The translations under genes and the position numbers were made by a program. This document shows, piece by piece, positions 1-58,529 of a stretch of DNA of 64,000 nucleotides (its first letter is position 1; each line of letters begins with the position of its first letter). The notes under the pieces were generated by a model, which saw only the letters and a program-made list of their open reading frames with translations, ran no database searches and was not told the DNA's origin. This stretch comes from Eledone cirrhosa (taxonomy: Eukaryota): assembly GCA_964016885.1 (NCBI GenBank), contig OZ024749.1, positions 28,210,001-28,274,000 of the forward strand, given 5' to 3'.

Positions 1-337
1 ATCATCATTTCATTTTACGTCCGCTTTTTCCCTGCTTGCTAGGGTGGGACGGGAACTGATTTTGGCTTGATTTCTACAGCTGGATGCCCTTCCTAACATC
101 AACCTTATTTACAGTGAGTGCTGGGTGCTTTTTTGCCGTGGCACCTACACGACCACTTTACAGTGGAATGATAGGAACCCCAGTCCCTATCATCTCATTT
201 CTACAGCTGAGTAAACTGGAGCAATGTGAAATAAAGTGTCTTGCTCAAGGAAACAACACATCACCCGGTCTGAGAATTGAACTCACAACCTTTCGATTGC
301 AAGGCCAATGCTGCTCTAGCCACTAAGCCATGTGCCT

Positions 338-339
<2 letters not shown>
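1..339 (-). mobile_element. tRNA-derived SINE, family A (CORE-like central domain, (ATG)n tail)
   Basis: Reverse complement begins GGAGGCACATGGCTTAGTGG (A box) ... GAGTTCAATTC (B box), then CCTTGAGCAAGACACTTTATTTCACATTGCTCCAGTTTACTCAGCTG; near-identical to copies at 7388, 52742, 56027. Confidence 0.9.
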
Positions 340-403
<64 letters not shown>

Positions 404-513
404 TCTTTTCACAATCTGTTGGTTCTGGGTTCAATCTCATATGTCATCTATTATCTGTTATCTCATATATCATCAGATATGTCATCTCTCTTCTATTATC
501 TGTTGTTCTACAG

Positions 514-579
514 ATCAACAGTCCAAATCTCAGCCAGTTATCCAAATGGAACTAAACTGACCAGACAACAACTAAAGAC
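514..579 (+). CDS. Internal exon of type I membrane protein (cadherin-related-like); extracellular membrane-adjacent segment STVQISASYPNGTKLTRQQLK(T)
   Basis: Acceptor tgttgttctacag|A, donor AC|gtaagt; 66 nt, phase 2-2, in frame with exon at 1417; NGT sequon. Confidence 0.8.
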
Positions 580-801
580 GTAAGTATGAACATATAACAA
601 ACAATATAATATTGCTGAGGAAAGCCTTAAATTGTCCATGAAATGATTTATTTACCCTTTCAAACACCCCTGAATCTATGTTACAAAACTATGTTTTAAA
701 GTGTTTTAAGAGCCTACATGGGGAAGAACAATCAAAGCCAGAACAAGAATTAGAAGGCAACAATAGATGCCATATCATTTACTAACAAACATACCATCTC
801 A

Positions 802-1324
802 TTAACACTTTTGATACTAAACCGTCTGCCTGAAACCACTGTTGGTTCTATGATACAAGACTATATGTGTTAAAGTGTTTGTATTTATCTAAAAACCTTT
901 CATCATAATTTTCTGTAAGAATCTTTAAGTTATGTTCCAAGCCACCTGATACCACCACTGATTTTATGATATAAAACTGTTTGTTTTAAAGTATTTATAT
1001 TTATCTAAAAGCATTCCATCATAATTTTATATAAGAAACTTTGTTATGTTCCAAAGCCCCTGAAATTGCCCGCAGTCTATGATACGAAGCTATTTGTTTT
1101 AAAGTATTAATATTTATCTAAAAACCTTCCATCATAATTTTAGGTAAGAACCTTTGCTATGCTATACCCCAAACACTAGAAATATAACAAGAAAGATATT
1201 TATATTACAAAATCTCTACAAATTTTTTTATTATTTTCAAAATCACTTGAAAATGATAAACAGTGTCTTTTTTTTTTTTTTTTTTTTTTTTAAGAAATCA
1301 TCATCATGGTAATGAAATGGTTAA
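802..1324. mobile_element. TTAA-flanked piggyBac-like MITE (family M1) with internal tandem duplications
   Basis: TTAA at both ends (ttaacactttt ... gtaatgaaatggttaa); body shared with 18807, 33250, 43610, 53290. Confidence 0.6.
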
Positions 1325-1416
1325 GGAATTAACATTCTATCATGAATGAATTTCTTTAATAACCAACATTATTTGAATAATTCTATTTATTTCCTTTTGT
1401 CTTTTCCTCACCACAG

Positions 1417-1590
1417 TTTGGTTCTGAAAAATAAATCTGTTCTACAGAAGATTTTTAAAGAAAAAAGTTCTGATAAAGATCTGAAGTCTTGGAACTTCCC
1501 CCCTCCAGAGTTATCTATCCTTATCCTGGCATGTCTCTTATTTATCTGCTGTCTTGTCTCTATCTCTATAATCTGCTTGAAACATAAAAT
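1417..1590 (+). CDS. Transmembrane exon of type I membrane protein (LVLKNKSVLQKIFKEK...PPELSILILACLLFICCLVSISIICLKHK)
   Basis: Strong polypyrimidine acceptor cttttcctcaccacag|T, donor AT|gtaagt; 174 nt phase 2-2; ~23 hydrophobic residues followed by KHK stop-transfer. Confidence 0.88.
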
Positions 1591-1789
1591 GTAAGTTGAC
1601 CCCTTTCTCTCTCTCATATACACACACATGTATATATAGAAATATATCAATGTTGTATTTTCCTGATAGCAGCATAAGTCGATATACCTGAATTAGTCCA
1701 ATCAAGACTCAATGATACTACATATAATAAATATGACTTGGCTATATGTATGGAGTCATTTTATAAGTAAATGTTTGTTGTTATTTTAA

Positions 1790-2010
1790 TACCTACTAGC
1801 AGAATGGCCTGGCGATGCTCGGGATTTTAAACATAGATTGGCATGTTCATCCCTCCTTTCTGAAACAGTACAGAGAAGTACAGAATACCTCGGCCCTGCG
1901 ACCGTCGAATAGCAGATTCCACTGACGATTCGTTTGCCCGCCTTGTTCTTTTTCTTGCCGCTTTCGCAGTATTTCGGCCAATGGAGTATCTCTTCCTTCG
2001 AGGCATGACC
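1790..2010 (-). mobile_element. Degenerate Helitron 5' coding relic (Rep/helicase N-terminal basic/STPR-like segment)
   Basis: ATG at 2006 gives MPRRKRYSIGRNTAKAARKRTRRANESSVESAIRRSQ, resembling animal Helitron N-termini as recalled; frameshifted continuation TVSERRDEHANL. Confidence 0.5.
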
Positions 2011-2196
2011 TAAAAGCAGGACCAAGTACACTAAGACTAACTGGTAGAGTAAGGAGTAAACTCGTCAGTGATGCATGTGATTTCTGAACCGTTGACTATG
2101 TAATTGCTAAACCATGAGTGCCGTTTTAACCGGGACGCGATGTTATAGCTATGTATCTATCTGCATTACGACATTATGAAAACATTGACTTCGCTA

Positions 2197-2264
<68 letters not shown>

Positions 2265-2496
2265 GTGTGTGTGTATATATATATATATATATATTTTTAT
2301 TTTTTTATTTTTTATGCTCTTTCTTACGTTCCTCTACACACTATACATCACATTCAACACTCCCTTACATCTCTCTCTTCACCACCGGATGCTGTTACCC
2401 GGAGAATTACCCATCTGCCTTGTTGAGGCTTCCAAAACGACCAAAAGATAATAAATCTTATTTTTCCACAATGCTTCAAGCAAACTTCAATATTCT

Positions 2497-2557
<61 letters not shown>

Positions 2558-2951
2558 TTAGTCGAACCAAAAGGGGACTCGATAAGGATAAATATATATC
2601 AAATATATAAGAACCCTAGAGCAAATATTGTTCTCATTGCTGACGTATTATCTTGGCTTTTTTCCGTTGATTGCCAGGGAACGTCTTCACGAACCAAAGT
2701 ATCGTCTTCCTGTTTTCCTTCGGTTGCAACGATTTTCAAAATATTTACTTCTGTGCTTTATGCTTTCATAATGTCATCATGCAGACAGCTAGACATACAG
2801 ACAGATATTATAAGGGCGCGATGTTATAGCTATGTATCTATCTAAAAAGACAGACTAAGAAAGAGAGAGAGATCGCTAACCGGCGCCCAATGCGGTCCCT
2901 AGGGCATTGAAAATTTGAAATATTTTAAAATATACAACCTAACATCTCTCT

Positions 2952-2989
<38 letters not shown>

Positions 2990-2992
<3 letters not shown>

Positions 2993-3378
2993 TGTAGGGG
3001 CAGAGTCCTCAAACACACTTTCTACTGGGTCCTGTTAGAAGCAACAGTCTCCAACTGATCTGGATAGATCCCCAAGCTCATAGATATTATCCAACCATCT
3101 TGCTCAAGGTCATACCCTGGGTCTCCTGCTGGTCGATTTTGCCTGTAAAATCTGTCCAGTGATTCTTTCCTGAGACATTCTGACCACATATCCATAGTAT
3201 CGTAACTGTGATTTCTCAATTCAGAGAAGTAGCAGATCTACTTGGAGTAACTCTTTGATCTCTGAGCTACACCCTCTGTCGAGTAACGTTATTCCAAAGA
3301 CCTTTCGGAGAAACTCCATTCTCCATTCCGGCCACTTGCATTCGCGAACATATTCTTTCAGACATTACCCAAGATTCA
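2990..3378 (-). mobile_element. RTE-clade LINE 3' fragment, decayed
   Basis: Minus translation ...MEFLRKVFGITLLDR...IEKSQLRYYGYVVRMSQERITGQILQAKSTSRRPR..ARWLDNI with stops; same 3' end at 10757-10830 and 50490-50555. Confidence 0.75.
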
Positions 3379-3388
3379 ATATATATAT

Positions 3389-3580
3389 AATTGTTTCTAC
3401 TTTAGGCACAAGGCCAGCAATAACCCAGTGCATTACTGGTACTTTATTTTATCGACCCCGTAAGGATGCAAGGCAAAGTCAACCTCGGCGGGATTTGAAC
3501 TCAGATCGTAAAGGGACGTAACTATGCTGGAAAGCATGGCGTCCGACCCTCTACCGATACTGCCAATCCACCGCCCTTAA
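3389..3580 (-). mobile_element. tRNA-derived SINE, family B (Meta-domain-like)
   Basis: Rev-comp GGCGGTGGATTGGCAG...GAGTTCAAATCCCGCCGAGGTTGACTTTGCCTT.CATCC...GGGGTCGATAAAATAAAGTACCAG; many other copies in window. Confidence 0.85.
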
Positions 3581-4087
3581 TATAATATATATATAATATA
3601 TATATATATAATGTTTCCTTACATAACCCTACTCAATAATGAAATATAAGCCTAAACTATAATTACTTGGTTCATTAGAATTTAAATTAAAACTACAACA
3701 GAAGACTCACTTTCTACCAGAAACCTTTCAACATGTGTATGTATATTCTTCTGGTTTCATTATTTTATAAATTTTCAATATTAGAGAGATAGCTGGTTTC
3801 TAATATACACACAAGATTCTTTCATTGCAATTTAGACAACATCAACTAGGTAAATATGTCTGCATGCATACATGTATGGGTGTGTGTGTGCAGGTATAGA
3901 TGCTATTGTATGTGTGGATCTGTATGCTTTGAGTTATATGTGTGCATGTACATATGTTTTGTTTGTTTGTTTGTGTGCTTTGAGAGTGCTTCCCACATTT
4001 GTGTGAGTGAGGGGTGGTGGAGTGTATGCAAACCTTTAATTAATAAGTTCTAATTAATTTCACCTTTGTTTTTTTTTGTTTTAACAG

Positions 4088-5294
4088 TGTAATGAGTAAC
4101 TGTCAGCTTTTGGAGAATCTCAGCAAAAAAAACACTTTCTACGATTCTGCTGATTTAACTGTCACAACAGTCACAAATAATGGTCAGCACCGGAGTTCTT
4201 CAAACTCCAACAGAAGCAACAGGACATCTATAATTAACCATACTTTCGAATTTGACTCCGATTCTGGTCGTCATAGCAACGAAAGTAAAACTAACCACAC
4301 AGACGAGACCAGATTCCAGACTTCCACAGTTTCTGTGAACAGAAGTCGTCGGATTCGAAGTCACAGACATGGCCGAGACAGTGGTGGCAGTGGCAGCGAT
4401 GGTAGTGGTGGTGGTAGTGGTGGTGGTAGTGGTGGTGGTGGTGGTGGTGGTGGTGGCTGCAGTAATTATTTAGAATCTGAGAAGCAGAGAAGTCGTCCAG
4501 TGAAGTCTTCCATGTTATATCACTATGACGACAGCGTCTCACGTAGACACCGGGACTGTAATAAAACCAAACATACATATGAAAACATCGAAGAGTCATC
4601 TGATTGTGGATCGGAGATGTTATGGACTGGAAATGTGTATGATAAACCGGATGAAATTCCATTTGATAGGAACTATCCGGAAAGTATTGCTGATTTGTAT
4701 AACGAATCGGACGATAACACGTATGAGATTCCAAACACAGTATCATCATCGAAGGACAGTTTATATGAGATGTATGATAAACCAGATTCACCACATACAA
4801 ATAACCTCTACGACATTGTCGATGATCCTTCAACAAAGGATTTGTTCAGGGAAAATATTAACGTTGACGGATCTTGTTCTGGTTCGTCTCACATCTATAG
4901 CAATGTTGTTACACATCATTACGAACACATCGACTCGGACAGTGATATCCCAAGTGAGCCACACCCAGATTATATAACGACTGGCTCAGAACTATCAGAC
5001 ATATCAGATGAGCCATCGTTACAAACCCCATGTGGCTCACTAACCACAGTATCTTATTCCTCCATATCAACATCACACAGCAACTTACAGTTAGATTTAT
5101 ATTCCTCCACAAACAAACATCGCTCTTCTAAGAGCAGGGACAAAACCCTTCAGAAAATTATAGGGCTCTTGGAACTCAGCCATTCCTCAGCTTCTACATC
5201 AAGGGGTTGTCAGGCTTGCCCTTTACCTCCACGGGATTACAATACCCAAAATAATAAGACATCACATTTTAATGCCTCCATGACTCAGTTATGA
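4088..5294 (+). CDS. Terminal coding exon: ~400-aa disordered, Tyr/Ser-rich cytoplasmic tail ending in class I PDZ-binding motif (MTQL*)
   Basis: Acceptor tttttttgttttaacag|T at 4088 completes codon AT|T from TM exon; 1.2-kb open frame in non-repeat sequence; motifs YENI, YDKP x2, YEIP, YSNV, YEHI, PHPDY, PPRDY. Confidence 0.88.
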
Positions 5295-5679
5295 TATTAA
5301 CCTAATATTTTCAAATTCTAGACTGCTGTACAGTTGATATAAAATAATCAAGTGGATAAGATATGATCAGACTATGAACTCATAGGATGTGAGTTCATAT
5401 CTGACTGTAGGCCAATGTGCTGTGTCTTTCAGCAAGACACCTCTACATGTTTCAGTGTATCTTTGTTGGAGAAGAGGTATCACGCCTCTGGGGAAAGTTA
5501 CCTGCAATAGACCTGCATCCTATCTTAGGAGAAATTTGTCTCATCCACTGTAATGCTATAAACTCCTCAGTTAAGCACCACCTTAATGGATATCCTTCCT
5601 AGTGGTTAATAAAACAAACACTGCGTTGGGGTGGGGTGGATGCTGTAGGTTCACATTAGTATCTTTATAAACCATTACC

Positions 5680-22409: not shown

Positions 22410-22735
22410 GCTGCGACACTTTAGTGTGTCACTGATGATCTGCAGGTCTCATGGTACTTTAATGTGTCACCAATAATCTTCAGGTGTGCTGTGATACTTT
22501 AGTGTCATAGGTAATCTGTAGGTCTGTCATGCCACTTTAGAGTGTCACCAATAAACGCTAGATGTGCTGAGACACTTTAGTGTGTCACCGATCAGTCCTA
22601 GGTGTATCACAACACTTTACTGTGTCACCAATTATCTCTAGGTGTGTCACAAGACTTTAGTGTATCACCAATAATCTATAGATGTGTTGCGACATTTTAA
22701 TGTGCCACTAATTATCTCTAGGTATGTCATGAAAT
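22410..22735. repeat. ~40-bp minisatellite (GACACTTTAGTGTGTCACCAATAATCTCTAGGTGTG), possibly from a hAT-type MITE subterminus
   Basis: About 8 copies with internal palindrome gacac...gtgtc. Confidence 0.75.
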
Positions 22736-22761
22736 TGATCAAATCAGAGCAATTTTTATGA

Positions 22762-23195
22762 ATATCTGACTGTGGTGTATATATATTTGACAATGGTGTA
22801 TATATCTGACTGTAGTGTATATATCTGACTGTAGAGTATATATCTGACTGTAGAGTATATATCTGACAGTGGTGTATATATTTGACTGTAGTGTATATCT
22901 GACTGTAGTATATATATATCTGACTGTAGTATATATATCTGACTGTAGTATATATATCTGACTGTAGTATATATATCTGACAGTGGTGTATATATTTGAC
23001 TGTAGTGTATATCTGACTGTAGTATATATATATCTGACTGTAGTATATATATATCTGACTGTAGTATATATATATCTGACTGTAGTGTATATATATCTGA
23101 CTGTAGTATATATATATATATATCTGACTGTAGTGTATATATATCTGACTGTAGTATATATATATCTGACTGTAGTATATATATATCTGACTGTA

Positions 23196-23235
<40 letters not shown>

Positions 23236-26200
23236 CTGTAGTGTATATATATCTGACTGTAGTGTATATATATCTGACTGTAGTGTATATATCTGACTAT
23301 AGTATATATCTGACTGTAGTATATATATCTGACTGTAGTATATATATCTGACTGTAGTATATATATCTGACTGTAGTATATATATCTGACTGTAGTATAT
23401 ATATCTGACTGTAGTGTATATATCTGACTGTAGTGTATATATCTGACTGTAGTGTATATATCTGACTGTAGTATATATATCTGACTGTGGTATATATATC
23501 TGACTGTGGTATATATATCTGACTGTAGTATATATATCTGACTGTAGTATATATATCTGACTGTAGTGTATATATCTGACTGTAGTGTATATATCTGACT
23601 GTAGTGTATATATCTGACTGTAGTATATATCTGACTGTAGTATATATATCTGACTGTGGTATATATCTGACTGTAGTATATATATCTGACTGTAGTATAT
23701 ATATCTGACTGTAGTATATATATCTGACTGTAGTATATATATCTGACTGTAGTGTATATATCTGACTGTAGTGTATATATCTGACTGTAGTATATATATC
23801 TGACTGTGGTATATATATCTGACTGTGGTATATATATCTGACTGTAGTATATATATCTGACTGTAGTATATATATCTGACTGTAGTGTATATATCTGACT
23901 GTAGTGTATATATCTGACTGTATTGTATATATCTGACTGTAGTGTATATATCTGACTGTAGTATATATCTGACTGTAGTATATATATCTGACTGTGGTAT
24001 ATATCTGACTGTAGTATATATATTTGACTGTAGTATATATATTTGACTGTAGTATATATATTTGACTGTAGTATATATATCTGACTGTAGTGTATATCTG
24101 ACTGTAGTGTATATCTGACTGTAGTATATATCTGACTGTAGTATATATATCTGACTGTGGTATATATCTGACTGTAGTATATATCTGACTGTAGTATATA
24201 TTTGACTGTAGTATATATATTTGACTGTAGTATATATATTTGACTGTAGTATATATATTTGACTGTAGTATATATATTTGACTGTAGTATATATATCTGA
24301 CTGTAGTGTATATCTGACTGTAGTATATATTTGACTGTAGTATATATATTTGACTGTAGTGTATATATCTGACTGTAGTATATATCTGACTGTAGTATAT
24401 ATATCTGACTGTAGTATATATATCTGACTGTAGTGTATATATCTGACTGTAGTGTATATATCTGACTGTAGTGTATATATCTGACTGTAGTATATATATC
24501 TGACTGTGGTATATATATCTGACTGTGGTATATATATCTGACTGTAGTATATATATCTGACTGTGGTATATATATCTGACTGTAGTGTATATATCTGACT
24601 GTAGTGTATATATCTGACTGTAGTGTATATATCTGACTGTAGTGTATATATCTGACTGTAGTGTATATATCTGACTGTAGTGTATATATCTGACTGTAGT
24701 ATATATCTGACTGTAGTATATATATCTGACTGTGGTATATATCTGACTGTAGTATATATATTTGACTGTAGTATATATATTTGACTGTAGTATATATATC
24801 TGACTGTAGTGTATATCTGACTGTAGTGTATATCTGACTGTAGTATATATCTGACTGTAGTATATATCTGACTGTAGTATATATATCTGACTGTGGTATA
24901 TATCTGACTGTAGTATATATCTGACTGTAGTATATATTTGACTGTAGTATATATATTTGACTGTAGTATATATATTTGACTGTAGTATATATATTTGACT
25001 GTAGTATATATATTTGACTGTAGTATATATATCTGACTGTAGTGTATATCTGACTGTAGTATATATATTTGACTGTAGTATATATATTTGACTGTAGTAT
25101 ATATATTTGACTGTAGTATATATATTTGACTGTAGTATATATCTGACTGTAGTATATATCTGACTGTAGTGTATATATTTGACTGTAGTATATATATTTG
25201 ACTGTAGTATATATATTTGACTGTAGTATATATATTTGACTGTAGTATATATATTTGACTGTAGTATATATCTGACTGTAGTATATATCTGACTGTAGTG
25301 TATATATCTGACTGTAGTGTATATATCTGACTGTAGTATATATATCTGACTGTAGTATATATATCTGACTGTAGTATATATATTTGACTGTAGTATATAT
25401 CTGACTGTAGTATATATATATCTGACTGTAGTATATATATCTGACTGTAGTATATATATCTGACTGTAGTGTATATATCTGACTGTAGTATATATATCTG
25501 ACTGTAGTATATATATCTGACTGTAGTGTATATATCTGACTGTAGTATATATATCAGACTGTAGTGTATATCTGACTGTAGTATATATATTTGACTGTAG
25601 TATATATCTGACTGTAGTATATATCTGACTGTAGTATATATATCTGACTGTAGTATATATATCTGACTGTAGTATATATATCTGACTGTAGTATATATAT
25701 TTGACTGTAGTATATATATTTGACTGTAGTATATATATCTGACTGTAGTATATATTTGACTGTAGTATATATATCTGACTGTAGTATATATGACTGTAGT
25801 ATATATATCCGAGTGTAGTATATATATCTGACTGTAGTATATATATCTGACTGTAGTATATATCTGACTGTAGTATATATATCTGACTGTAGTATATATC
25901 TGACTGTAGTATATATATCTGAGTGTAGTATATATATCTGAGTGTAGTATATATATCTGAGTGTAGTATATATATCTGAGTGTAGTATATATATCTGACT
26001 GTAGTATATATATCTGACTGTAGTATATATATCTGACTGTAGTATATATATCTGACTGTAGTATATATATTTGACTGTAGTATATATCTGACTGTAGTAT
26101 ATATCTGACTGTAGTATATATCTGACTGTAGTATATATCTGACTGTAGTGTATATATCTGACTGTAGTATATATATCTGACTGTAGTATATATATTTGAC

Positions 26201-27629
26201 TGTAGTATATATCTGACTGTAGTACATATATATCTGACTGTAGTATATATATCTGACTGTAGTATATATATCTGACTGTAGTGTATATATCTGACTGTAG
26301 TATATATATCTGACTGTAGTATATATCTGACTGTAGTGTATATATCTGACTGTAGTATATATATCAGACTGTAGTGTATATCTGACTGTAGTATATATAT
26401 TTGACTGTAGTATATATCTGACTGTAGTATATATCTGACTGTAGTATATATATCTGACTGCAGTATATATATCTGACTGTAGTATATATATTTGACTGTA
26501 GTATATATATTTGACTGTAGTATATATATTTGACTGTAGTATATATATCTGACTGTAGTATATATTTGACTGTAGTATATATATCTGACTGTAGTGTATA
26601 TATATCTGACTGTAGTATATATGACTGTAGTATATATATCCGAGTGTAGTATATATATCTGACTGTAGTATATATATCTGACTGTAGTATATATCTGACT
26701 GTAGTATATATATCTGACTGTAGTATATATCTGACTGTAGTATATATATCTGAGTGTAGTATATATATCTGAGTGTAGTATATATATCTGAGTGTAGTAT
26801 ATATATCTGAGTGTAGTATATATATCTGACTGTAGTATATATATATCTGACTGTAGTATATATATATCTGACTGTAGTATATATATATCTGACTGTAGTA
26901 TATATATCTGACTGTAGTATATATATCTGACTGTAGTATATATTTGACTGTAGTATATATTTGACTGTAGTATATATTTGACTGTAGTATATATATTTGA
27001 CTGTAGTGTATATATATCTGTCTGCAGTATATATATCTGACTGTAGTATATATATCTGACTGTAGTGTATATATCTGACTGTAGTGTATATATCTGACTG
27101 TAGTATATATATCTGACTGTAGTATATATATCTGACTGTAGTATATATATCTGACTGTAGTATATATATCTGACTGTAGTATATATATCTGACTGTAGTA
27201 TATATATCTGACTGTAGTATATATATCTGACTGTAGTATATATATCTGACTGTAGTATATATCTGAGTGTAGTATATATCTGACTGTAGTATATATATAT
27301 CTGACTGTAGTATATATCTGACTGTAGTATATATCTGACTGTAGTGTATATATCTGACTGTAGTGTATATATCTGACTGTAGTATATATCTGATTGTAGT
27401 ATATATTTGACTGTAGTATATATATCTGACTGTAGTATATATATCTGACTGTAGTATATATCTGACTAGTATATATCTGACTAGTATATATCTGACTAGT
27501 ATATATCTGACTAGTATATATCTGACTTGTATATATCTGACTTGTATATATCTGACTTGTATATATCTGACTGTAGTATATATTTGACTGTAGTGTATAT
27601 ATATTTGACTGTAGTATATATCTGACTGC
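22762..27629. repeat. 4.9-kb compound minisatellite CTGACTGTAG(TA)nT, mostly 17-21-bp units
   Basis: Roughly 250 units of a fixed 10-mer with variable TA tract. Confidence 0.97.
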
Positions 27630-27769
27630 ATAAAATTAGACATGTAACTGGTGTTCATGTAGTTTAGTGTGGGATAAGGATTGGCAAATGAACTCATCTG
27701 AGGACAGCAACATGAATGCTCCTTCATTGGTCCTGACATGTGATATATTTAATTGTAAGGTGATCTGTA

Positions 27770-44800: not shown

Positions 44801-47800
44801 AATGGTTTGAAGGGTTATCAAAGACCAAGTCAAGACTTAATCAGAGATGCTTCCCTCTTAGACAAGTGTCAGACAAGTGGAAATCCACATAATGTTTACA
44901 AACATTCCAGGTTTTTAGGCATGGTTTTTACAGTTAGATGCCGTCCCTATCAGTAAAAACACTTTGTAGAGCAGAGCGAGATGAGTAATTTTTGTGGCAC
45001 TGGTCCTTAAGAGAAGTATTTGGTTAAACTACAAAGACAGGTGTGTATATTCTTACCAAAAGTAGGTCAGCAATGGAATATGTGTGAATCTCTCGAAATA
45101 GGTGACCAGATAAATTCTCAATTGCTGGATAGATACTGGAATAAAAAAACCAAAATGGAATTATTTTGCATTTACTTTAATATTTCATCATTTCTTTTCA
45201 TAATTATATTTTGTCACACCAGGTGTATCATCATTTTTACACCTGTTGTTCCATACTTACACTAGTCAGGTACTCCATGATTAATATAAAGCCTATCATA
45301 AGGTCCAGAAAGCTAAACCTTACTTTATCAGGGAAAAGGGCCCTCAAACACATTGCTGTTATGGTAACTATCAAAAGGTGAATTGCGAGAGAGAGAAAAA
45401 GAGATAGAGATACTACCACCACCACACCACACCACTACCATCACCACTCACCTTATACTGGCATGTCTGCAGATTTTCATGAGTACTGCCAGATGTATCA
45501 ACTGTTGGCGGTATTGTTTAATGTTCTCTAGAACCTTCACTCTGCGATATAAGGCTGGGTTGATGTCTTCAATATTGAAGAAGGGCTCATGGAAAATCTT
45601 GTTTAAAAGATCCGAAGAATATTTGGAGACGTAGTATTTAGTGAAATCCCATTTCTGTAGAATCCTGGCCGGAATATATGAAGTGGCGTTTGTATGGCAA
45701 CATTGGCAGAAATACTTGCCAAGATATTCACAGTAACGAAACCGCTTCATATAGGCTAGAAGGAAATGAGAGACATTATATGTTGTGTTTTATATAGCTT
45801 AAGAACAAACAGTATATATATATATATATATATATGATATGATGTTTCATATAGCCTAGGAACAAACAATATATATATATATATATATGATATGATGCAC
45901 TTTATATAGTTTAAGAACAATATATATATGTAAAAGGTAAACAAAAATAACACAATCGGTACAGTATATGGAAGGAATATATTAGGTTAACGCTTGAAAT
46001 AGCAGGAAAAGGGTCTCAATCTTTTGGACACTAGTCCTTCATCAGAAGCAAGAATAAGAAATTAGAAAGATTGAAGGGATGGGTGGGGTGGAATTGGAAA
46101 AAATGTTTTTAGAGAAAAATAACAGTTCCAACCATGTTGCCATCGCTTAGAAAACTGTTGATGCTGGCGTTTTGAGTATATATGTGTTTTATATAGCTTA
46201 AGAATAAACAGTATATATATATATATGATATTTTATATAACCTAGAAACAAACAATATATATATATATGATATAATATTTTTACATAGCCTTGGAACAAA
46301 CAATATATATATACATATGATATGATGTGTTTTATTTAGCTTAAGAACAAACAATATATATGATATATTTTAGATAGCTTAAGAACAAAAAATATTAATA
46401 TATATGATATAATATGATGTGTTTTATATAGCCTAGAAACAAACAATATATATATGATATAATTGTTTCTACTTTTGGCACAATGCCAGAAATTACCCAG
46501 TGTATTACTGGTACTTTATTTTATATATATGATATAATATGATGTTTTTATATAGCCTAATGACATAGGCAATGTCTTTCATTAGAATATGGTAATGAAA
46601 GAGTTAATAAATGAGAATCTGTAATGAAGGTGTTGTGGTATACTGGAAATCTTTAGGTTGATAATGAACTGAATAATATAAAATTGCTATAAGATGGCAG
46701 CACTGTAGGATAGAGAAGAGGAATTCTATAGAAAATCTTACCAGGTTCTACACGTGTTCCACAGCCGGCACATCGGTAGTTCTGTTTTGGAATTACCACA
46801 TTCCGCCTGGAACGACATGAAAACATTCACAAGAGTTAAGAAAAAAAAAAACATTGAATAAACACAAATAGATTTAACCCTTTAATATTTACATTACTCT
46901 ATATTTACTATTGTATTTTCGTGGTAAAGGCTTTATCTTACATAATATTGAATCTATGAGATTTTGATGTTAATTATGTTGAGAACAATGCCTTAACATC
47001 AGTATGAGCAGCCAGTTACAGCCAATTTAAACAGAAAGAGGTGAGAGAATTCTGGCCAGATACAGCCGGTTTAAATGCTAAAGAGTTAAGGAATACATTA
47101 ACTCTTAAAGTCTTGTACTATATGAAACCACATTAGCAAGACAGCTTTAACTCAACGTCCTGTACCACAAGAAACTGCAATAACAAGATGTACTTGGTAA
47201 GTACAAAACAACACTATGATTGTATCATGTTAAACATTAAAGTCTTTACTACTTCACTGCAAATTTTCACAATGATCTGTCCACAAGTAAAGGTACTATA
47301 AACATTAGAATTAACAATCCACATGAAATCACATTAGCAAAACATTCTCGAAAAGTACAAAGCAGCACTATGGCTGCATCATATTAAAAATTAAAGGTTT
47401 TAGTTTGCTGCAAATTTTCACCACAATCTGTTCACAAATAAAGATGTTATAAATATTTGAATTAACATATTTGTTTTTAGATATTTTCTGTTAATAAATC
47501 ATTACAAGATGTTAAGAGTTAAAGGAGATGTTTTGTAGAGTTTCAAGAGACAAAATTACTTACTTAGTTACAGTATGAATACTGAAAATTATCTGAAAGC
47601 GTGGCGGAGCCCATTCTAAATTGCCTCGTAGCCTCGTCTGAAAGAGAAACAAAGTTAATTAGAACATCATCATCATCAATTTACATCTGTTTTCTATACT
47701 AACATGGATTAAGTGGTTTGTCACAATGTGCCTTCTTATCTAGAGTTTCTGCCTTGGAAAATAGGCGGCAAATTGGCAGAGTCAACAGAACAATGGATAG

Positions 47801-53800: not shown

Positions 53801-56800
53801 TCATTTGTTCAATGGCAGATATCAAGATTTCTGAGATGCTAAAGTGAGCATTCTCCTGCAACACAGGATATGGACAGGATATGAACTATATGACCTTTTA
53901 ACTTCACCAAACTTCAATGCCAAAATTCAACAACAACAACATTGGCACAAGTCCACCAATTTTTTTTTTGTCTGTGTGTGTGTGGAGGGAGTTAATTATA
54001 TCGACCCCAGTACTTGAGTGGTACAGAGGGATGAAAGGCAAAATTGACTTTAGTGAGATTTGAACTCAGAATAATGGTTTCTGATTTAGGCACAAGGCCA
54101 ACAATTTTAGGGGAGAGGAAAGTCAATTGACCCCAGTACATTACTGGTACTTTATTTTATCGACCTCATAAGGATAAAAGGCAAAGCTAACCATGGCAGA
54201 ATTTGAACTCAGAATGTAAAGGGACGTAACTATATACCACAGAGGATGTTGAATGACCCTCTACTGATACTCCCAATTCACTACCCTTAATAATTGTTTT
54301 TACTTTAGGCACAAGGCCAGCAATTACCCAGTACATTACTGGTACTTCATTTTATCGACCCAGTAAGGATGAAAGGCAAAGTTAACCTCGGCGGGATTTG
54401 AACTCAGACTGTAAAGGGACGTAACTATGATAGAAAGCATGGCGTCCAACCCTCTACCGATACTGCCAATTCACTACCCTTAATAATAGTTTCTAATTTA
54501 GGCATACATTTCATTTGGGATGTGGCTTAGTGGTTAGAGTGTTGGACTCCCAATCATAAGGTCAATCATAAGGTTCAATTCCTAGACTTGGCAACATGTT
54601 CTTGAGCAAGTTACTTTATTTAACAGTGCTCCTTCTGCCAGGAATTGAAACTGGAAAGACAAATGGAGACATTGTTGCCTTGGTTTAATCTGACAACTAA
54701 CTTCATTCTATTTTTAAAAATCGGAAACCATTATTGTTAGTTTTTTAAAATTAAAGTACAAGGCCAGCAATTTACAAGGAGGATGTATATGTAAAGGTGT
54801 GTACACCTGAGAGGGTATATATGTAAAAGTGTGAATACCTGAGAGGGTATATATGTAAAGGTGTGTATACCTAAGAGGGTACATATGTAAAGGTGTGTAT
54901 ACCTAAGAGGGTATATATGTAAAGGTGTGTACACCTGAGAGGGTATATATGTAAAAGTGTGTATACCTGAGAGGGTATATATGTCAAGGTGTGTACACCT
55001 GATGGGGGAATATATGTAAAGGTGTGTACACCTGAGAGGGTATATATGTAAAGGTGTGTATACAAGTGGGTATGTGTGTATATATATATATATATATAAA
55101 GGTGTATATACAAGAAGGATATATATGTAAAGGTGTGTATACAAGGAGGGTATATATATATATATATAAAGGTGTGTATACACGAGTGGGTATATATGTA
55201 AAGGTGTATATACAAGAAGGGTATATATGTAAAGGTGTGTATACAAAGAGGGTATATATGCAATCAAATATATACTTGTATACCTGAGAGGGTATATATG
55301 TAAAGGTGTGTATACAAGAAGGATATATATGTAAAGGTGTGTATACAAGAAGGATATATATGTAAAGGTGTGTATACAAGAAGGATATATATGTAAAGGT
55401 GTGTATACAAGGAGGGTATATATATATATATAAAGGTGTGTATACATGAGTGGATATATATGTAAATATGTGTATACACGTGAGGGTATATATGTAAAGG
55501 TGTGTCTACCCAGAGGATATATATGCAAACGTGTGTGTACCTGAGAGTGTATATATGTAAAGTTGTGTATACAAGAAAGAGTACATATGTAAAGGTGTGT
55601 ATAACTGTGGGAGTATATATGCATGAGGGGGTGTGTACTTGAGAGGGTGTGTGTACATGAGAGGGTGTGTGTACATGAGAGGGTGTGTGTACTTGAGAGG
55701 GTGTGTGTACTTGAGAGGGTGTGTGTGCAAGACAGTGCATAGATAATAGGATATGTGTAGAGAGGGTGGATGTAAATGAGAGAGTAAAAGTGGAAGATTT
55801 ACCCTGTCTAAGTTGGCACAGGTGTTGAAGTCTTGAGAGGTGAGGAAACTGATAAGAGATTGTCCAGGAACTGGATGGGTTAAGTTACCGTCATGACAAC
55901 ATATCGAATGTGGATTGGTGAACGTGGCTGAAACAAAGAGAAGCTTTGATTTTCACAAGTTTCACCATATATATATCATCATCCTCGTTTAATGTCCACT
56001 TTCCACGCTAGCATGGGTTAGACGGTACATGGCTCAGTGGTTAGAGCATTGGCCTTGCAATCGAAAGGTTGTGAGTTCAATTCTCAGACCGGGTGATGTG
56101 TTGTTTCCTTGAGCAAGACACTTTATTTCACATTGCTCCAGTTTACTCAGCTGTAGAAATGAGATGATAGGGACTGGGGTCCCTATCATTCCACTGCAAA
56201 GTGGTCGTGGAGCTGTCACGGCAAAAAAGCACCCAGCACTCACTGTAAATGGGGTTGGTGTTAGGAAGGGCATCCAGCTGTAGAAATCAAGCCAGAATCA
56301 GTTCCCGTCCCACCCTTGCAAGCAGGGAAAAAGTGGATGTAAAATGAAATGATGATGATGATGATATATATATATATATCATCGTTTTACGTCCGTTCTT
56401 CCACGCTAGCATGGGTTAGACAGGTTGTCCTGTTGTGAGCAGTGTCCAGTCGGCTGACCTTGTCTTGCTCATACAGGAATTGATTTTGGCTTGATTTCTA
56501 AAGCTGGATGCCCCCCCTAACACCAACCACTTTTACTGTGTGGGCTGGGTGCTTTTTTTGCTGTGGCACCTCCACGACCACTTTGCAGTGGGGGTGGAGG
56601 GGGGGGGGGCATATTGTCTATATACTTCAGCATCGGCTTGTTCCTGGGGGGGGGGGGGGTCGTCTGTATTACTGCATGACGCCAGAGGTCATGGTCGTGT
56701 GTCATTGCCCTTGAGAGGTGCAATTGGGTAAGGTTGGCCTTTATCACCTCATCCCAGGTCTTCTTGGGTCTCCCCACTCCATGGCTTCCATCGACTTCCA

Positions 56801-58529
56801 GTGTTCTGCACCTTTTTATGCAGCTGTCATCCTTCATATGCATCACATGTCCATACCAACGTAACCTCTCCTGCACACAGCATTTGATTCCTCTTATGCT
56901 CAGTCTCTCTCTCAATTCGTTTATACTTTGCCGTTCGCGTATATTACTATTACACATCCATCGGAGCATGCAAGCTTCGTTTGTTTCTAATCTCCGCAAG
57001 TCTACAGACAGCGCCCAAGTTTCTCTTCCATGTAACATTGCTGTTCGTATACACGCATCATACAGTCTGCCTTTCATTTTGAGGGAAAAGCCTTTTGCAG
57101 CTAGCAGTAGCTCTCTGAACTTCTTCCATCCTGTTCTTACCCTAGTTATTGTACTTTCCAAACACCCACCTCCTCTGCTAATTCGGTCACCTAGGTAGCA
57201 GAAGCTGTCTACTGTTTCTACAGAGCCCTCCCAGAGTTTGGTGGTGCTTGTTTCATGTGGTCGTTTGCTGCTTGCTGTCCCAGCACAGCTGCTACATATG
57301 AAGCCTACATTCTTAGTTAAACTTTCTGAGATCCCACTACATCTCTTGTGTACCCATTGTTTGCATTTGGGGCATAAGATGGAGTTCCTACCTACACTTT
57401 TCCTACATACTGAGCAAGGCCATTTCCCTGAGGGAATCTGGGTTCTGTTTTCTCGTCTACTTACAAGGACCTTAGTCTTTGTCAGGTTGACTTTGAGGCC
57501 CCTTCTTTCTAGTCCCTGCTTCCATGTTTGAAATTTCTTTAGTTCCACCATGATTCAGTTATAAGTGCGAGATCATCCGCATACAGGACTTCCCATGGGC
57601 ATCCGGTCTTAAGCTCCTCTGTTATTGCCTGCAAAACTATAATGAACAGATGAGGGCTAAGAACAGAGCCCTGGTGGACACCGACCTATATGCTAAATTC
57701 CTCGCTATATATATACGTATATATATATATATATATATATCAGTAGGCACCTCTTAACCAAATATACCCCCCCCCTGCCATCAACACCACCCCTTTCTCT
57801 GTTAAGTATGTTGGTAACACAACATCCAGTCCTAAATAAATGAAGTCGTGTAGGTGTCACGACAAAAAAAACACACAGTCCACGGTGTAATGTGGCCGTG
57901 TAGGTAACATGGTAAAAACCTCCCAGTCCACACTGCAAACGTGGTTGATGTTAGGAAGGGAATCCAGCCATAGAAAACCTGCCAGGCAGTCCTATACGAG
58001 CGAGGCGACCAATCTTGCTTCAAGTGGGACAATTCCCGTCTAAAACCATGTTAGCGTGGAAGATAGATGTTAAACGATGATGATGATGATGATATATATA
58101 TCGTCATCATCATCATCATCATCAATGTTTAACGTCCGTGTTCCACGCTTGCATGGGTTTGGACGGGGGTAGTCCCACTTGAGGCAAGAGTGATTGTCTT
58201 GCTCGCATAGGACTGTCTGGCAGGTTTTCTACAGTTGAATGCCCTTCCTAACACCAACCACATTTATGTTAAGTATTCTGTAAGGTTTGTCTAGTTTCTT
58301 GAAACCTTTGGTAATGGAATAATTATATTGTGTTATGTAATTATATATATGTATAAATATTATATAATATGTAGATCTCCATACATTGGTAGAATATAGA
58401 CAGCTTTATTATAAATAGAAATGACTTCTACATGACTAGAACTGTTTCATTCGTATGAAATCATCAGGACATTACTGATGATTTCATATGAATGAAACAG
58501 CTTTAGTCTCGTAGAAGTTATTTCTATAA

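Follow-up and report, generated by a model that had tools for sequence, protein, structure and literature searches.

Exons at positions 514–579, 1417–1590 and 4088–5294 of the analysed Eledone cirrhosa DNA (64,000 nt, termed the window) are exons 23–25 of a 25-exon gene whose 1,295-aa product consists, in order, of a signal peptide, seven repeats of the cadherin (EC) type, a membrane-adjacent domain (MAD), a transmembrane (TM) helix and a 402-aa cytoplasmic tail ending in -MTQL. Among MAD-bearing cadherins, the encoded type I protein falls on the PCDH15/CDHR5/Cad89D side and, on balance, probably serves to link or anchor microvilli or comparable actin-based protrusions at the apical surface. 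Its distinctive traits are an ectodomain of half length, preferentially conserved tail tyrosines and a loss of EC1-2 calcium motifs that is confined to octopods.

Exon and domain architecture

The gene starts 32.6 kb upstream of the window, and exons 1–22 (C9:28177440-28209951, window positions -32560 to -49) encode the signal peptide, EC1–EC7 and the first two thirds of the MAD, bearing out the cadherin ectodomain that an earlier sequence-only reading of the window had predicted. The window opens with the end of intron 22 (1..513; all features lie on the + strand). Exon 23 (514..579, 66 nt, phase 2-2) encodes MAD strand β3, the PNGT turn and the first half of helix α2 and is followed by intron 23 (580..1416, GTAAGT...AG), while exon 24 (1417..1590, 174 nt, phase 2-2) encodes the end of helix α2, a stalk, the TM helix and a KHK stop-transfer. 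The TM helix (1511..1579, model residues 868–890) has a Kyte-Doolittle 19-mer peak of 3.19 and a helix pLDDT of 86–88 in the orthologue model. Intron 24 (1591..4087, GTAAGT...AG) contains many microsatellites and very high-copy repeats, and the coding part of exon 25 (4088..5294) encodes the Ser/Asp/Thr/Asn-rich tail. The first AATAAA 3' of the stop codon (5608..5613) is a candidate polyadenylation signal. The splice sites of the three exons are AG acceptors preceded by pyrimidine tracts and GTAAGT donors, and the coding join of 66 + 174 + 1207 nt has one frame, phase 2 at every junction and one stop (TGA, 5292–5294). Re-derivation thus reproduced the in-frame join that had been read as ectodomain end, TM helix, KHK, a tail of about 400 aa and a T-x-L end. 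Across the 25-exon model every intron is GT-AG with no internal stops, and three octopod proteins map in order across 38 kb by tblastn.

The ectodomain of ~865 aa is spread over 24 small exons and contains 20 N-glycosylation sequons. Seven EC repeats were counted by motif and model, with five stretches over the Pfam threshold for PF00028 in orthologue P0002. Modelling of EC1-3 gave three EC folds with a mean pLDDT of 83, and the structural rankings of this model, whose underlying alignment included a PCDH15, tie between PCDH15 EC2-3 (Z 16.5) and CDH23 EC18-19 (Z 16.2). A PDB search with alignment A2, which contains a PCDH15, was circular and was set aside. The calcium motifs of EC1-2 are lost in octopods and intact in cuttlefish.

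Between the last EC repeat and the TM helix, modelling supports, with moderate confidence, a ferredoxin/SEA-like MAD of ~100 aa. The single-sequence model was built on the O. sinensis orthologue and has a pLDDT of 61, with the first 17 residues (the first strand) unmodelled. The best 10 of 500 Foldseek rows were PCDH15 MAD12, CDH23 MAD28 or Nup54 (E 0.004–0.18), every E value being at least 0.001, and VIA-align placed PCDH15/CDH23 at ranks 1–6 of 48,161 chains (Z 6.1–7.4 and so below 8, rmsd 3.0–3.5, 80–84 residues). The previously proposed likeness of this segment to PCDH15/CDH23 is therefore upheld as a MAD-like fold in the orthologue model. The Pfam PCDH15_12th and ECD models gave no match, and PF28393 was rejected as a MAD family given its presence on nearly all cadherin rows.

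The tail contains 11 tyrosine motifs (YENI, YDKP twice, YPES, YNES, YEIP, YEMY, YDIV, YSNV, YEHI and YITT) clustered at 4578..4973, which are candidate phosphotyrosine docking sites. Tyrosine is kept to cuttlefish at 9 of 15 alignable positions versus 74 of 303 for other residues (p = 0.005). Phenylalanine (4 of 6) and proline (7 of 15) are also kept above average, so that the tyrosine conservation is no proof of phosphorylation. A DSGxxS string, which we take to be a β-TrCP degron pattern, is invariant in octopods and reads DSGPGH in cuttlefish. A (GGT)n-type repeat at 4380..4457 encodes a 26-aa Gly/Ser insert that is additional to the aligned public orthologue models. The C-terminal MTQL (5280..5291) is found in four octopod orthologues, with MTHL in cuttlefish and M-T-x-L in all orthologues found, and the class I PDZ-ligand pattern first seen in Eledone cirrhosa is accordingly conserved. 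The tail is long but, against the 605 aa of a fish PCDH15 row, not exceptional. Over the fetched proteins, a search with a tail profile gave no row from outside the coleoids below E = 0.9.

Candidate role at the apical surface

Cephalopods possess hair cells, photoreceptors of the rhabdomeric type and sensory epithelia in their suckers, with microvilli or cilia that cadherins would hold together. Analogy makes a role as microvillar link or anchor likely for the present gene. The last EC repeat and the MAD would pack together and may bring a parallel pair of chains into contact, and the calcium-poor EC5-6 linker would form a hinge, as in PCDH15, CDHR5 and Cad99C. By similar analogy, the EC1-3 tip would bind in trans, most plausibly to a CDH23/Cad87A/88C-type cadherin, the MTQL end would tie the protein to the actin core through a PDZ scaffold of either harmonin/whirlin or EBP50-ezrin type, and the tyrosine cluster may provide phosphorylation-dependent SH2 docking. 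The PDZ ligand of CDHR5 is reported to bind EBP50, and Cad99C to set microvillus length (PMC10916864). An insensitive search of the Eledone cirrhosa genome with USH1C_N (harmonin) was empty. With 7 repeats rather than at least 11, a shorter gap would be spanned than by PCDH15, and the loss of the octopod EC1-2 calcium motifs speaks against Eledone cirrhosa having an intact handshake of the PCDH15 kind.

A force- or contact-gated signalling receptor, with a protease site covered by the MAD and a tyrosine-rich tail that signals once phosphorylated or shed, in place of a lasting link, is unlikely but carries some weight. EC plus SEA-like modules of PCDH15 and CDHR2 are described as substituting for the Notch proteolytic switch in cells (PMC6586460), although that assay used a chimera and did not address native function. 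The clustered and conserved tyrosine motifs and the absence of EC1-2 calcium motifs from the octopod tip would suit a receptor; so would the DSGxxS string, which is however broken in cuttlefish, and the conserved PDZ-type end and PCDH15-like hinge suit a mechanical link equally.

It is rather improbable that the product is a non-linking cadherin of apical morphogenesis, which gives microvilli their form or fastens the apical membrane to the extracellular matrix, as several atypical cadherins of the fly are described as doing, with no partner cadherin. Such a function would fit the sequon-rich ectodomain and the nearest tree neighbours, which are Cad89D-labelled insect proteins. It would also fit accounts that Cad99C lengthens microvilli with a dispensable tail (PMC10916864), that Cad86C, Cad99C and Cad74A act in epithelial shape and that Cad89D is up in the late pupal eye (PMC8043229). 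Conservation of the tail and PDZ-type end across coleoids speaks against it, suggesting that a cytoplasmic anchor matters.

Equally doubtful is a more specific proposal, that the gene takes the place of PCDH15 in cephalopods. Its product would be a tip-link-type cadherin of half length that pairs with a partner of the CDH23/Cad88C type, either in sensory cells of the statocyst, lateral line or sucker or between the microvilli of rhabdomeres, its tip rewired in octopods and its tail a phosphotyrosine signalling platform. Were this true, the gene would offer a natural experiment on the mechanical effects of link length and of calcium at the tip; were the gene a general epithelial cadherin, its value would lie in corrected annotation. 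The gene is a single-copy, intact candidate, and the difference in the EC1-2 linker between cuttlefish and octopod is directly testable. An 'Oct-PCDH15' described in PMC7465212 probably represents a different gene, as the forward primer has at least 7 mismatches to the model, a comparison across different species and with one primer only.

Placement among the MAD-bearing cadherins

Placement on the PCDH15 side is carried by marks in EC1, EC3 and EC5-6. Cys28 and Cys93 of EC1 line up with those of PCDH15, of insect proteins labelled Cad89D, of Pomacea and of a group of teleost proteins, and correspond to the strand A and F cysteine pair typical of the PCDH15/CDHR5 side (Cr-3), with a predicted bond; a strand A-F disulfide of EC1 is given as a PCDH15/CDHR5 mark in PMC8691648. 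The EC3 motifs P-x-I-x-A-x-D-x-D and A-x-Q share a register across the same groups, and neither these nor a cysteine pair of that spacing occurs in any of 17 CDH23/87A/88C-type rows. EC5 without DRE and EC5-6 without DxNDN characterize 8 of 8 PCDH15-side rows, whereas both are kept in 4 of 4 CDH23-type rows. The EC5-6 linker of PCDH15 is reported to be partly calcium-free and flexible (PMC7547225).

Trees of EC1-5 grouped the gene with Pomacea (90/92) and with Cad89D rows (97/94, or 94/98 with the mixture model), and the N-terminal repeats separated it from CDH23/Cad87A/88C with 97 SH-aLRT in one tree and 100/99 in others. These trees are without Cad99C, CDHR5, CDHR2 and vertebrate CDH23, include long branches and use automatic NCBI names as labels; the C-half tree is a quick tree only. 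AU tests on EC1-5 rejected grouping with CDH23-type rows (p = 0.004) and exclusive grouping with PCDH15 (p = 0.012), and grouping with molluscan CDH23-like rows was likewise rejected (p = 0.0008). When restricted to EC1-3, the test did not reject the gene as sister to the entire CDH23-type clade (p = 0.21). A pairwise BLAST to fish PCDH15 was discarded because the alignment was out of register. The original family call, which spanned both sides, thus stands for PCDH15/CDHR5/Cad89D and is rejected for CDH23/Cad87A/88C by the EC marks and the EC1-5 AU test.

CDH23, CDHR2, Cad87A and Cad88C (Cr-2) also combine EC repeats, a MAD, a TM helix and a class I PDZ-type end, but their rows have neither the cysteine pair of EC1 nor the EC3 motifs, retain the EC5 and EC5-6 motifs, carry tail motifs of their own and form a separate 100/99 clade. 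That the gene is a shortened member of this side, as the NCBI name 'cadherin-23-like' implies, is very improbable: the names of P0002 and P0004, the tie of CDH23 MAD28 with PCDH15 MAD12 in fold searches and the EC1-3 AU result would allow it, but the marks all point the opposite way, the EC1-5 and molluscan AU tests oppose it, and the tail lacks the RKLKAA, P-G/N-T-N...NP and SLDEN strings of molluscan/insect CDH23-type rows.

Like the gene, vertebrate PCDH15, the tip-link cadherin, combines the strand A-F cysteines of EC1 with the EC3 motifs, an EC5-6 linker poor in calcium sites and in register, and a long tail, and its MAD fold is the top structural match. The partly calcium-free EC5-6 linker of PCDH15/Cad99C is present as judged by sequence motifs, while the 11 EC repeats plus MAD12 of PCDH15/Cad99C orthologues are not; there are 7 repeats here against 11 in PCDH15 and 4 plus a mucin domain in CDHR5, which was left out of the alignments. 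The degenerate octopod EC1-2 linker is a further difference from PCDH15. Insect Cad89D (P0050 and P0095, so labelled by NCBI, and the unnamed P0094) shares the EC1 cysteines, EC3 motifs, EC5-6 linker loss and a MAD-position domain ahead of the TM helix, and is the best outside EC4 match (70–78 bits versus at most 53 for other groups listed). Its ectodomain has ~1,650 aa, its tail shows no similarity to that of the gene, and not all Cad89D rows end in T-x-L.

Pomacea canaliculata XP_025098109 (P0032, 'protocadherin Fat 4-like') is the best non-coleoid match for EC5 (the top 4 rows) and EC5-TM. It has the same EC1-5 marks and a similar MAD, and is sister in four trees with 81–92 support (unstarred). 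Its 1,471-aa model repeats the EC5-EC6 unit four times and stops 9 aa past the TM helix, leaving the tail not comparable. The description of the gene as lineage-specific holds loosely, for a coleoid gene of octopods and cuttlefish with a probable gastropod counterpart. One survey reports that PCDH15 was not found in the oyster and suggests loss in a protostome lineage (PMC10734073); a diverged, short gene of the PCDH15/Cad89D side in coleoids and a snail shows that molluscs retain this branch, whose members go by misleading names.

The clustered protocadherins of cephalopods (6–7 EC) have a large single ectodomain exon, no MAD and tandem paralogues, none of which applies to the gene. Two exon queries each found one copy in the Eledone cirrhosa genome, where the clustered genes show open frames of ~800 aa. 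Genome searches for further family members or harmonin with PF23206, PF21219, PF18432, an insect MAD plus tail and an ant EC1-3, all insensitive to small exons, returned nothing specific.

Splicing and orthologues

The RefSeq models for O. sinensis and O. bimaculoides contain these three segments too, and their junction codons coincide. A cuttlefish-like relative has intron-free full-length ORFs of 1,254–1,255 aa on Logan contigs of 4.7–5.5 kb, and its genomic read-through P0134 agrees in the codon and phase at which the last intron sits. In the related organism X1, a 344-nt contig sits exactly on 1415–1590 and the depth in bin 450–585 equals 65 nt of that contig; both are consistent with the 579/1417 splice, though it is not a listed joint. 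X1 gave exon pieces, and its joints listed at 85% or 80%, beyond which a further 1,341 and 2 lie, included neither 579/1417 nor 1590/4088. The coverage of X2–X4 is even across introns, and these behave as DNA. An artefactual three-exon join, with the 400-aa ORF as an orphan or pseudogene, can practically be dismissed, even with O. vulgaris and Argonauta models that are each without one of the two small exons, against the intact 25-exon frame, an identity of 70–83% by region to the O. sinensis orthologue, the spliced ORFs of the cuttlefish-like relative and third codon positions for 10 of 15 listed X1 differences in exon 24.

As exons 22–24 are all phase 2-2, TM-less or exon-23-less isoforms are conceivable. 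The TM-less O. vulgaris and exon-23-less Argonauta models both miss other conserved pieces as well, and the absent small exons are therefore read as annotation gaps.

A MAD+TM profile search of 1.84 billion representatives returned three rows, one of them real (P0003) and two (P0013 and P0014) noise driven by repeats. The ESM Atlas gave generic cadherin leads only, with the MAD part below 0.9. Literature searches brought up no paper about the gene, and five accessions had 0 hits; octopus cadherin catalogues, reportedly those of Albertin 2015 and Wang and Ragsdale 2017, or their supplements may list it. Orthologues were found in three Octopus species, Argonauta and cuttlefish, and calling the exons hidden was an overstatement, as public databases already contain orthologous entries: XP_036367292 (O. 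sinensis), XP_014785618 (O. bimaculoides), CAI9736702 (O. vulgaris), GAB1605390 (Argonauta hians) and CAE1257263 (Acanthosepion pharaonis). All five match the Eledone cirrhosa gene in exon order and C-terminus, three of the five miss exons, and they are named cadherin-23-like or Fat-like, which are wrong names for this gene, or are unnamed.

Gene model, orthologues and splicing

Inspection of the sequence placed AG acceptors and GTAAGT donors at exons 514–579, 1417–1590 and 4088–5294 (+ strand), which join through phase-2 junctions in a single frame and encode the end of an ectodomain, a transmembrane (TM) helix, KHK, a 402-aa tail and a C-terminal MTQL. The three sets of exon coordinates proposed by the sequence-only reading were exact, with splice sites, frame and phase in agreement. 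A query with the tail ORF picked out three of 1,633 candidate proteins, each of them an octopod cadherin with 62–70% identity. Mapping of three octopod cadherin proteins onto the 200 kb of DNA upstream of the window gave a gene model of 25 exons and 1,295 aa, extending from window position -32560 (upstream of the window start) to 5294, with 24/24 GT-AG introns and no internal stops. The cadherin ectodomain that the same reading had anticipated was found there, with seven extracellular cadherin (EC) repeats. The model consists of a signal peptide (residues 1–26), EC1 (27–122), EC2 (123–229), EC3 (230–343), EC4 (344–447), EC5 (448–553), EC6 (554–652), EC7 (653–752), a membrane-adjacent domain (MAD, 753–856), TM (868–890) and the cytoplasmic tail (894–1295). 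In the O. sinensis orthologue, Pfam marks five cadherin stretches, and the degenerate EC1 adopts a cadherin-repeat fold in a predicted model of O. bimaculoides EC1–3 (pLDDT 83). Each of two exon queries matched a single copy in the 3.0-Gb Eledone cirrhosa genome, which holds large clustered-protocadherin arrays.

The gene is real and its kind already known; it was taken to be hidden, which it is not, since five public genomes already hold models of it. In RefSeq, the O. sinensis and O. bimaculoides models both contain all three window exons with identical junction codons. A profile search gave 330 matches among 7,999 scored candidates, and the best 120 of these 330 added P0016, an unnamed, cuttlefish-like Logan protein (1,255 aa, 43%), and an Acanthosepion pharaonis model, the two being near-identical to each other wherever residues exist in both. 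The P0016 cluster contains three full-length ORFs on contigs of only 4.7–5.5 kb, whereas the gene covers 38 kb; these ORFs must therefore be spliced. One member, P0134, reads through from intron to last exon, and the boundary there matches the 1590/4088 junction in both codon and phase. A 344-nt contig from the related organism X1 covers 1415–1590 exactly, with 10 of the 15 listed differences from exon 24 at third codon positions, and exon 23 depth equals 65 nt of that contig. These data fit the 579/1417 splice by arithmetic rather than by a listed joint, X1 as RNA being the tool's guess. Neither 579/1417 nor 1590/4088 appears among the listed splice joints for Eledone cirrhosa itself.

Exons 22, 23 and 24 are each phase 2-2 with a length that is a multiple of three, therefore skipping preserves the frame. 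The TM exon is absent from the O. vulgaris model and exon 23 from that of Argonauta. Judged from sequence, a secreted isoform produced by exon skipping is possible. In intron 10 the 5' part of exon 11 recurs as two tandem, stop-bearing copies (contig positions 28192542–28192622 and 28193177–28193275), each with its own AG acceptor, which are possibly decoy or poison exons. A stray copy of the exon 15 acceptor together with that exon's first 20 codons lies ~92 kb upstream of the gene start (28084915–28084974).

Family placement of the ectodomain

Orthologues carry the database names cadherin-23-like or Fat-like, but the sequence says otherwise and points to the PCDH15/Cad89D side. Cys28 and Cys93 of EC1 align with the PCDH15 row, Cad89D-labelled insect rows, a Pomacea canaliculata protein (XP_025098109) and a teleost group; a strand A–F disulfide in EC1 is described as a mark of PCDH15 and CDHR5 (PMC8691648). 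EC3 carries P-x-I-x-A-x-D-x-D and A-x-Q, found in 0/17 CDH23/87A/88C-type rows, which alone serve as control, the PCDH15-side rows having been picked by similarity to the cadherin gene. The DRE of EC5 and the DxNDN of the EC5–6 linker are missing in 8/8 PCDH15-side rows and both retained in 4/4 CDH23-type rows; PCDH15 EC5–6 is reported as a flexible, partly calcium-free linker (PMC7547225).

In trees built on rows picked by hand from about 130 fetched proteins, sampled without Cad99C, CDHR5, CDHR2 and vertebrate CDH23, CDH23-type rows were set apart at 97 to 100/99 for both EC1–3 and EC1–5. The EC1–5 tree (12 rows, LG+G4) joined the cadherin to the Pomacea protein at 90/92 and to Cad89D rows at 97/94, and a mixture model (18 rows) placed it with Cad89D rows at 94/98. 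AU tests on EC1–5 rejected grouping with CDH23-type rows (p=0.004), with PCDH15 alone (p=0.012) and with the teleost group (p=0.022). When only EC1–3 was used, the test did not reject the cadherin as sister to the CDH23-type rows as a whole (p=0.21), and EC1–3 structural rankings were ties. The teleost group (P0022, P0052, P0053, P0055, P0068 and P0113), labelled 'protocadherin Fat 4-like' or unnamed, bears the PCDH15-side EC1, EC3 and EC5 marks, about 12–13 EC repeats, a MAD-like segment and a short tail that in most members ends in -SSL/-SAL, and also looks misnamed.

Membrane-adjacent domain, tail and taxonomic range

A single-sequence prediction of O. sinensis residues 750–890 (pLDDT 61, first 17 residues unmodelled) showed a kinked helix, a strand, a split strand and a kinked helix, followed by the TM. 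With this model, Foldseek ranks 1–10 comprised Nup54, PCDH15 MAD12 and CDH23 MAD28, with no E value below 0.001. VIA-align, run independently against 48,161 chains, placed PCDH15 and CDH23 at ranks 1–6 (Z 6.1–7.4, rmsd 3.0–3.5, 80–84 aligned), Nup54 at rank 7 and CELSR1 at rank 9. The proteins topping these searches are named as MAD carriers in bioRxiv 10.1101/460097. Because two methods put the expected family first for the membrane-adjacent segment of a cadherin, the likeness to the PCDH15/CDH23 MAD that the sequence-only reading proposed stands for the predicted fold, with middling scores.

The tail profile matched only coleoids among the proteins fetched, and the MAD+TM search found no non-octopod match among 1.84 billion representatives. 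Outside the coleoids, the strongest match both to EC5 (top four rows) and to EC5–TM was the Pomacea protein, in which the EC5–EC6 unit is repeated four times. Accordingly, of the suggestion that this cadherin is lineage-specific, one part holds, as the seven-EC form with this tail appears coleoid among fetched proteins, but the lineage itself is probably older within molluscs. No published account of the subfamily call, seven-EC architecture or octopod tip change was found in a search that lay outside two octopus cadherin catalogues (cited in PMC6339937).

The EC1–2 calcium motifs VNEFPP, PEN and ATDKD are retained in cuttlefish; the linker and DxD motifs are lost in Eledone cirrhosa, O. sinensis and Argonauta, and the predicted EC1–3 model is disordered at both places. 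The tail has 18 tyrosines, 13 kept across the three octopod rows compared; down to cuttlefish, 9/15 alignable tyrosines are kept vs 74/303 other residues (p=0.005). Their contexts YENI, YDKP, YEIP, YSNV and YEHI resemble SH2-docking motifs. M-T-x-L ends all orthologues, and Eledone cirrhosa alone has a 26-aa Gly/Ser insert, which derives from a GGT repeat.

Proposed role and neighbouring features

The cadherin most likely acts apically on actin protrusions, as a link or as an anchor. By analogy with PCDH15, CDHR5 and Cad99C, its tip would bind in trans, EC5–6 would act as a hinge, EC7–MAD would pair in parallel and the C-terminus would attach to a PDZ scaffold. This scaffold need not be harmonin and may be another, because CDHR5 is reported to bind EBP50/E3KARP and CDHR2 to bind USH1C (PMC10916864). 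One rival reading is a shedding or phosphotyrosine receptor (PMC6586460), another a non-linking cadherin of apical morphogenesis (PMC8043229).

Elsewhere in the window, an exon at 45448–45789 (-) encodes a Rubicon homology domain (PF13901, E 5.7e-32), and further up, at 58780–59517 (-), lies a long exon of low complexity; together they probably represent a gene of the Rubicon/PLEKHM1/DEF8 type in convergent orientation to the cadherin. The tandem array of about 5 kb at 22665–27748, whose repetitive minus-strand pseudo-ORFs reach 1,569 aa, is satellite DNA and not a gene. A 345-aa frame with a PHD finger at 56517–57554 (-), of a repeat family recurring many times upstream, is probably a LINE fragment. 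Within cadherin intron 24, positions 3387–3530 hold an extremely high-copy short interspersed repeat with a summed contig depth of about 10 million.
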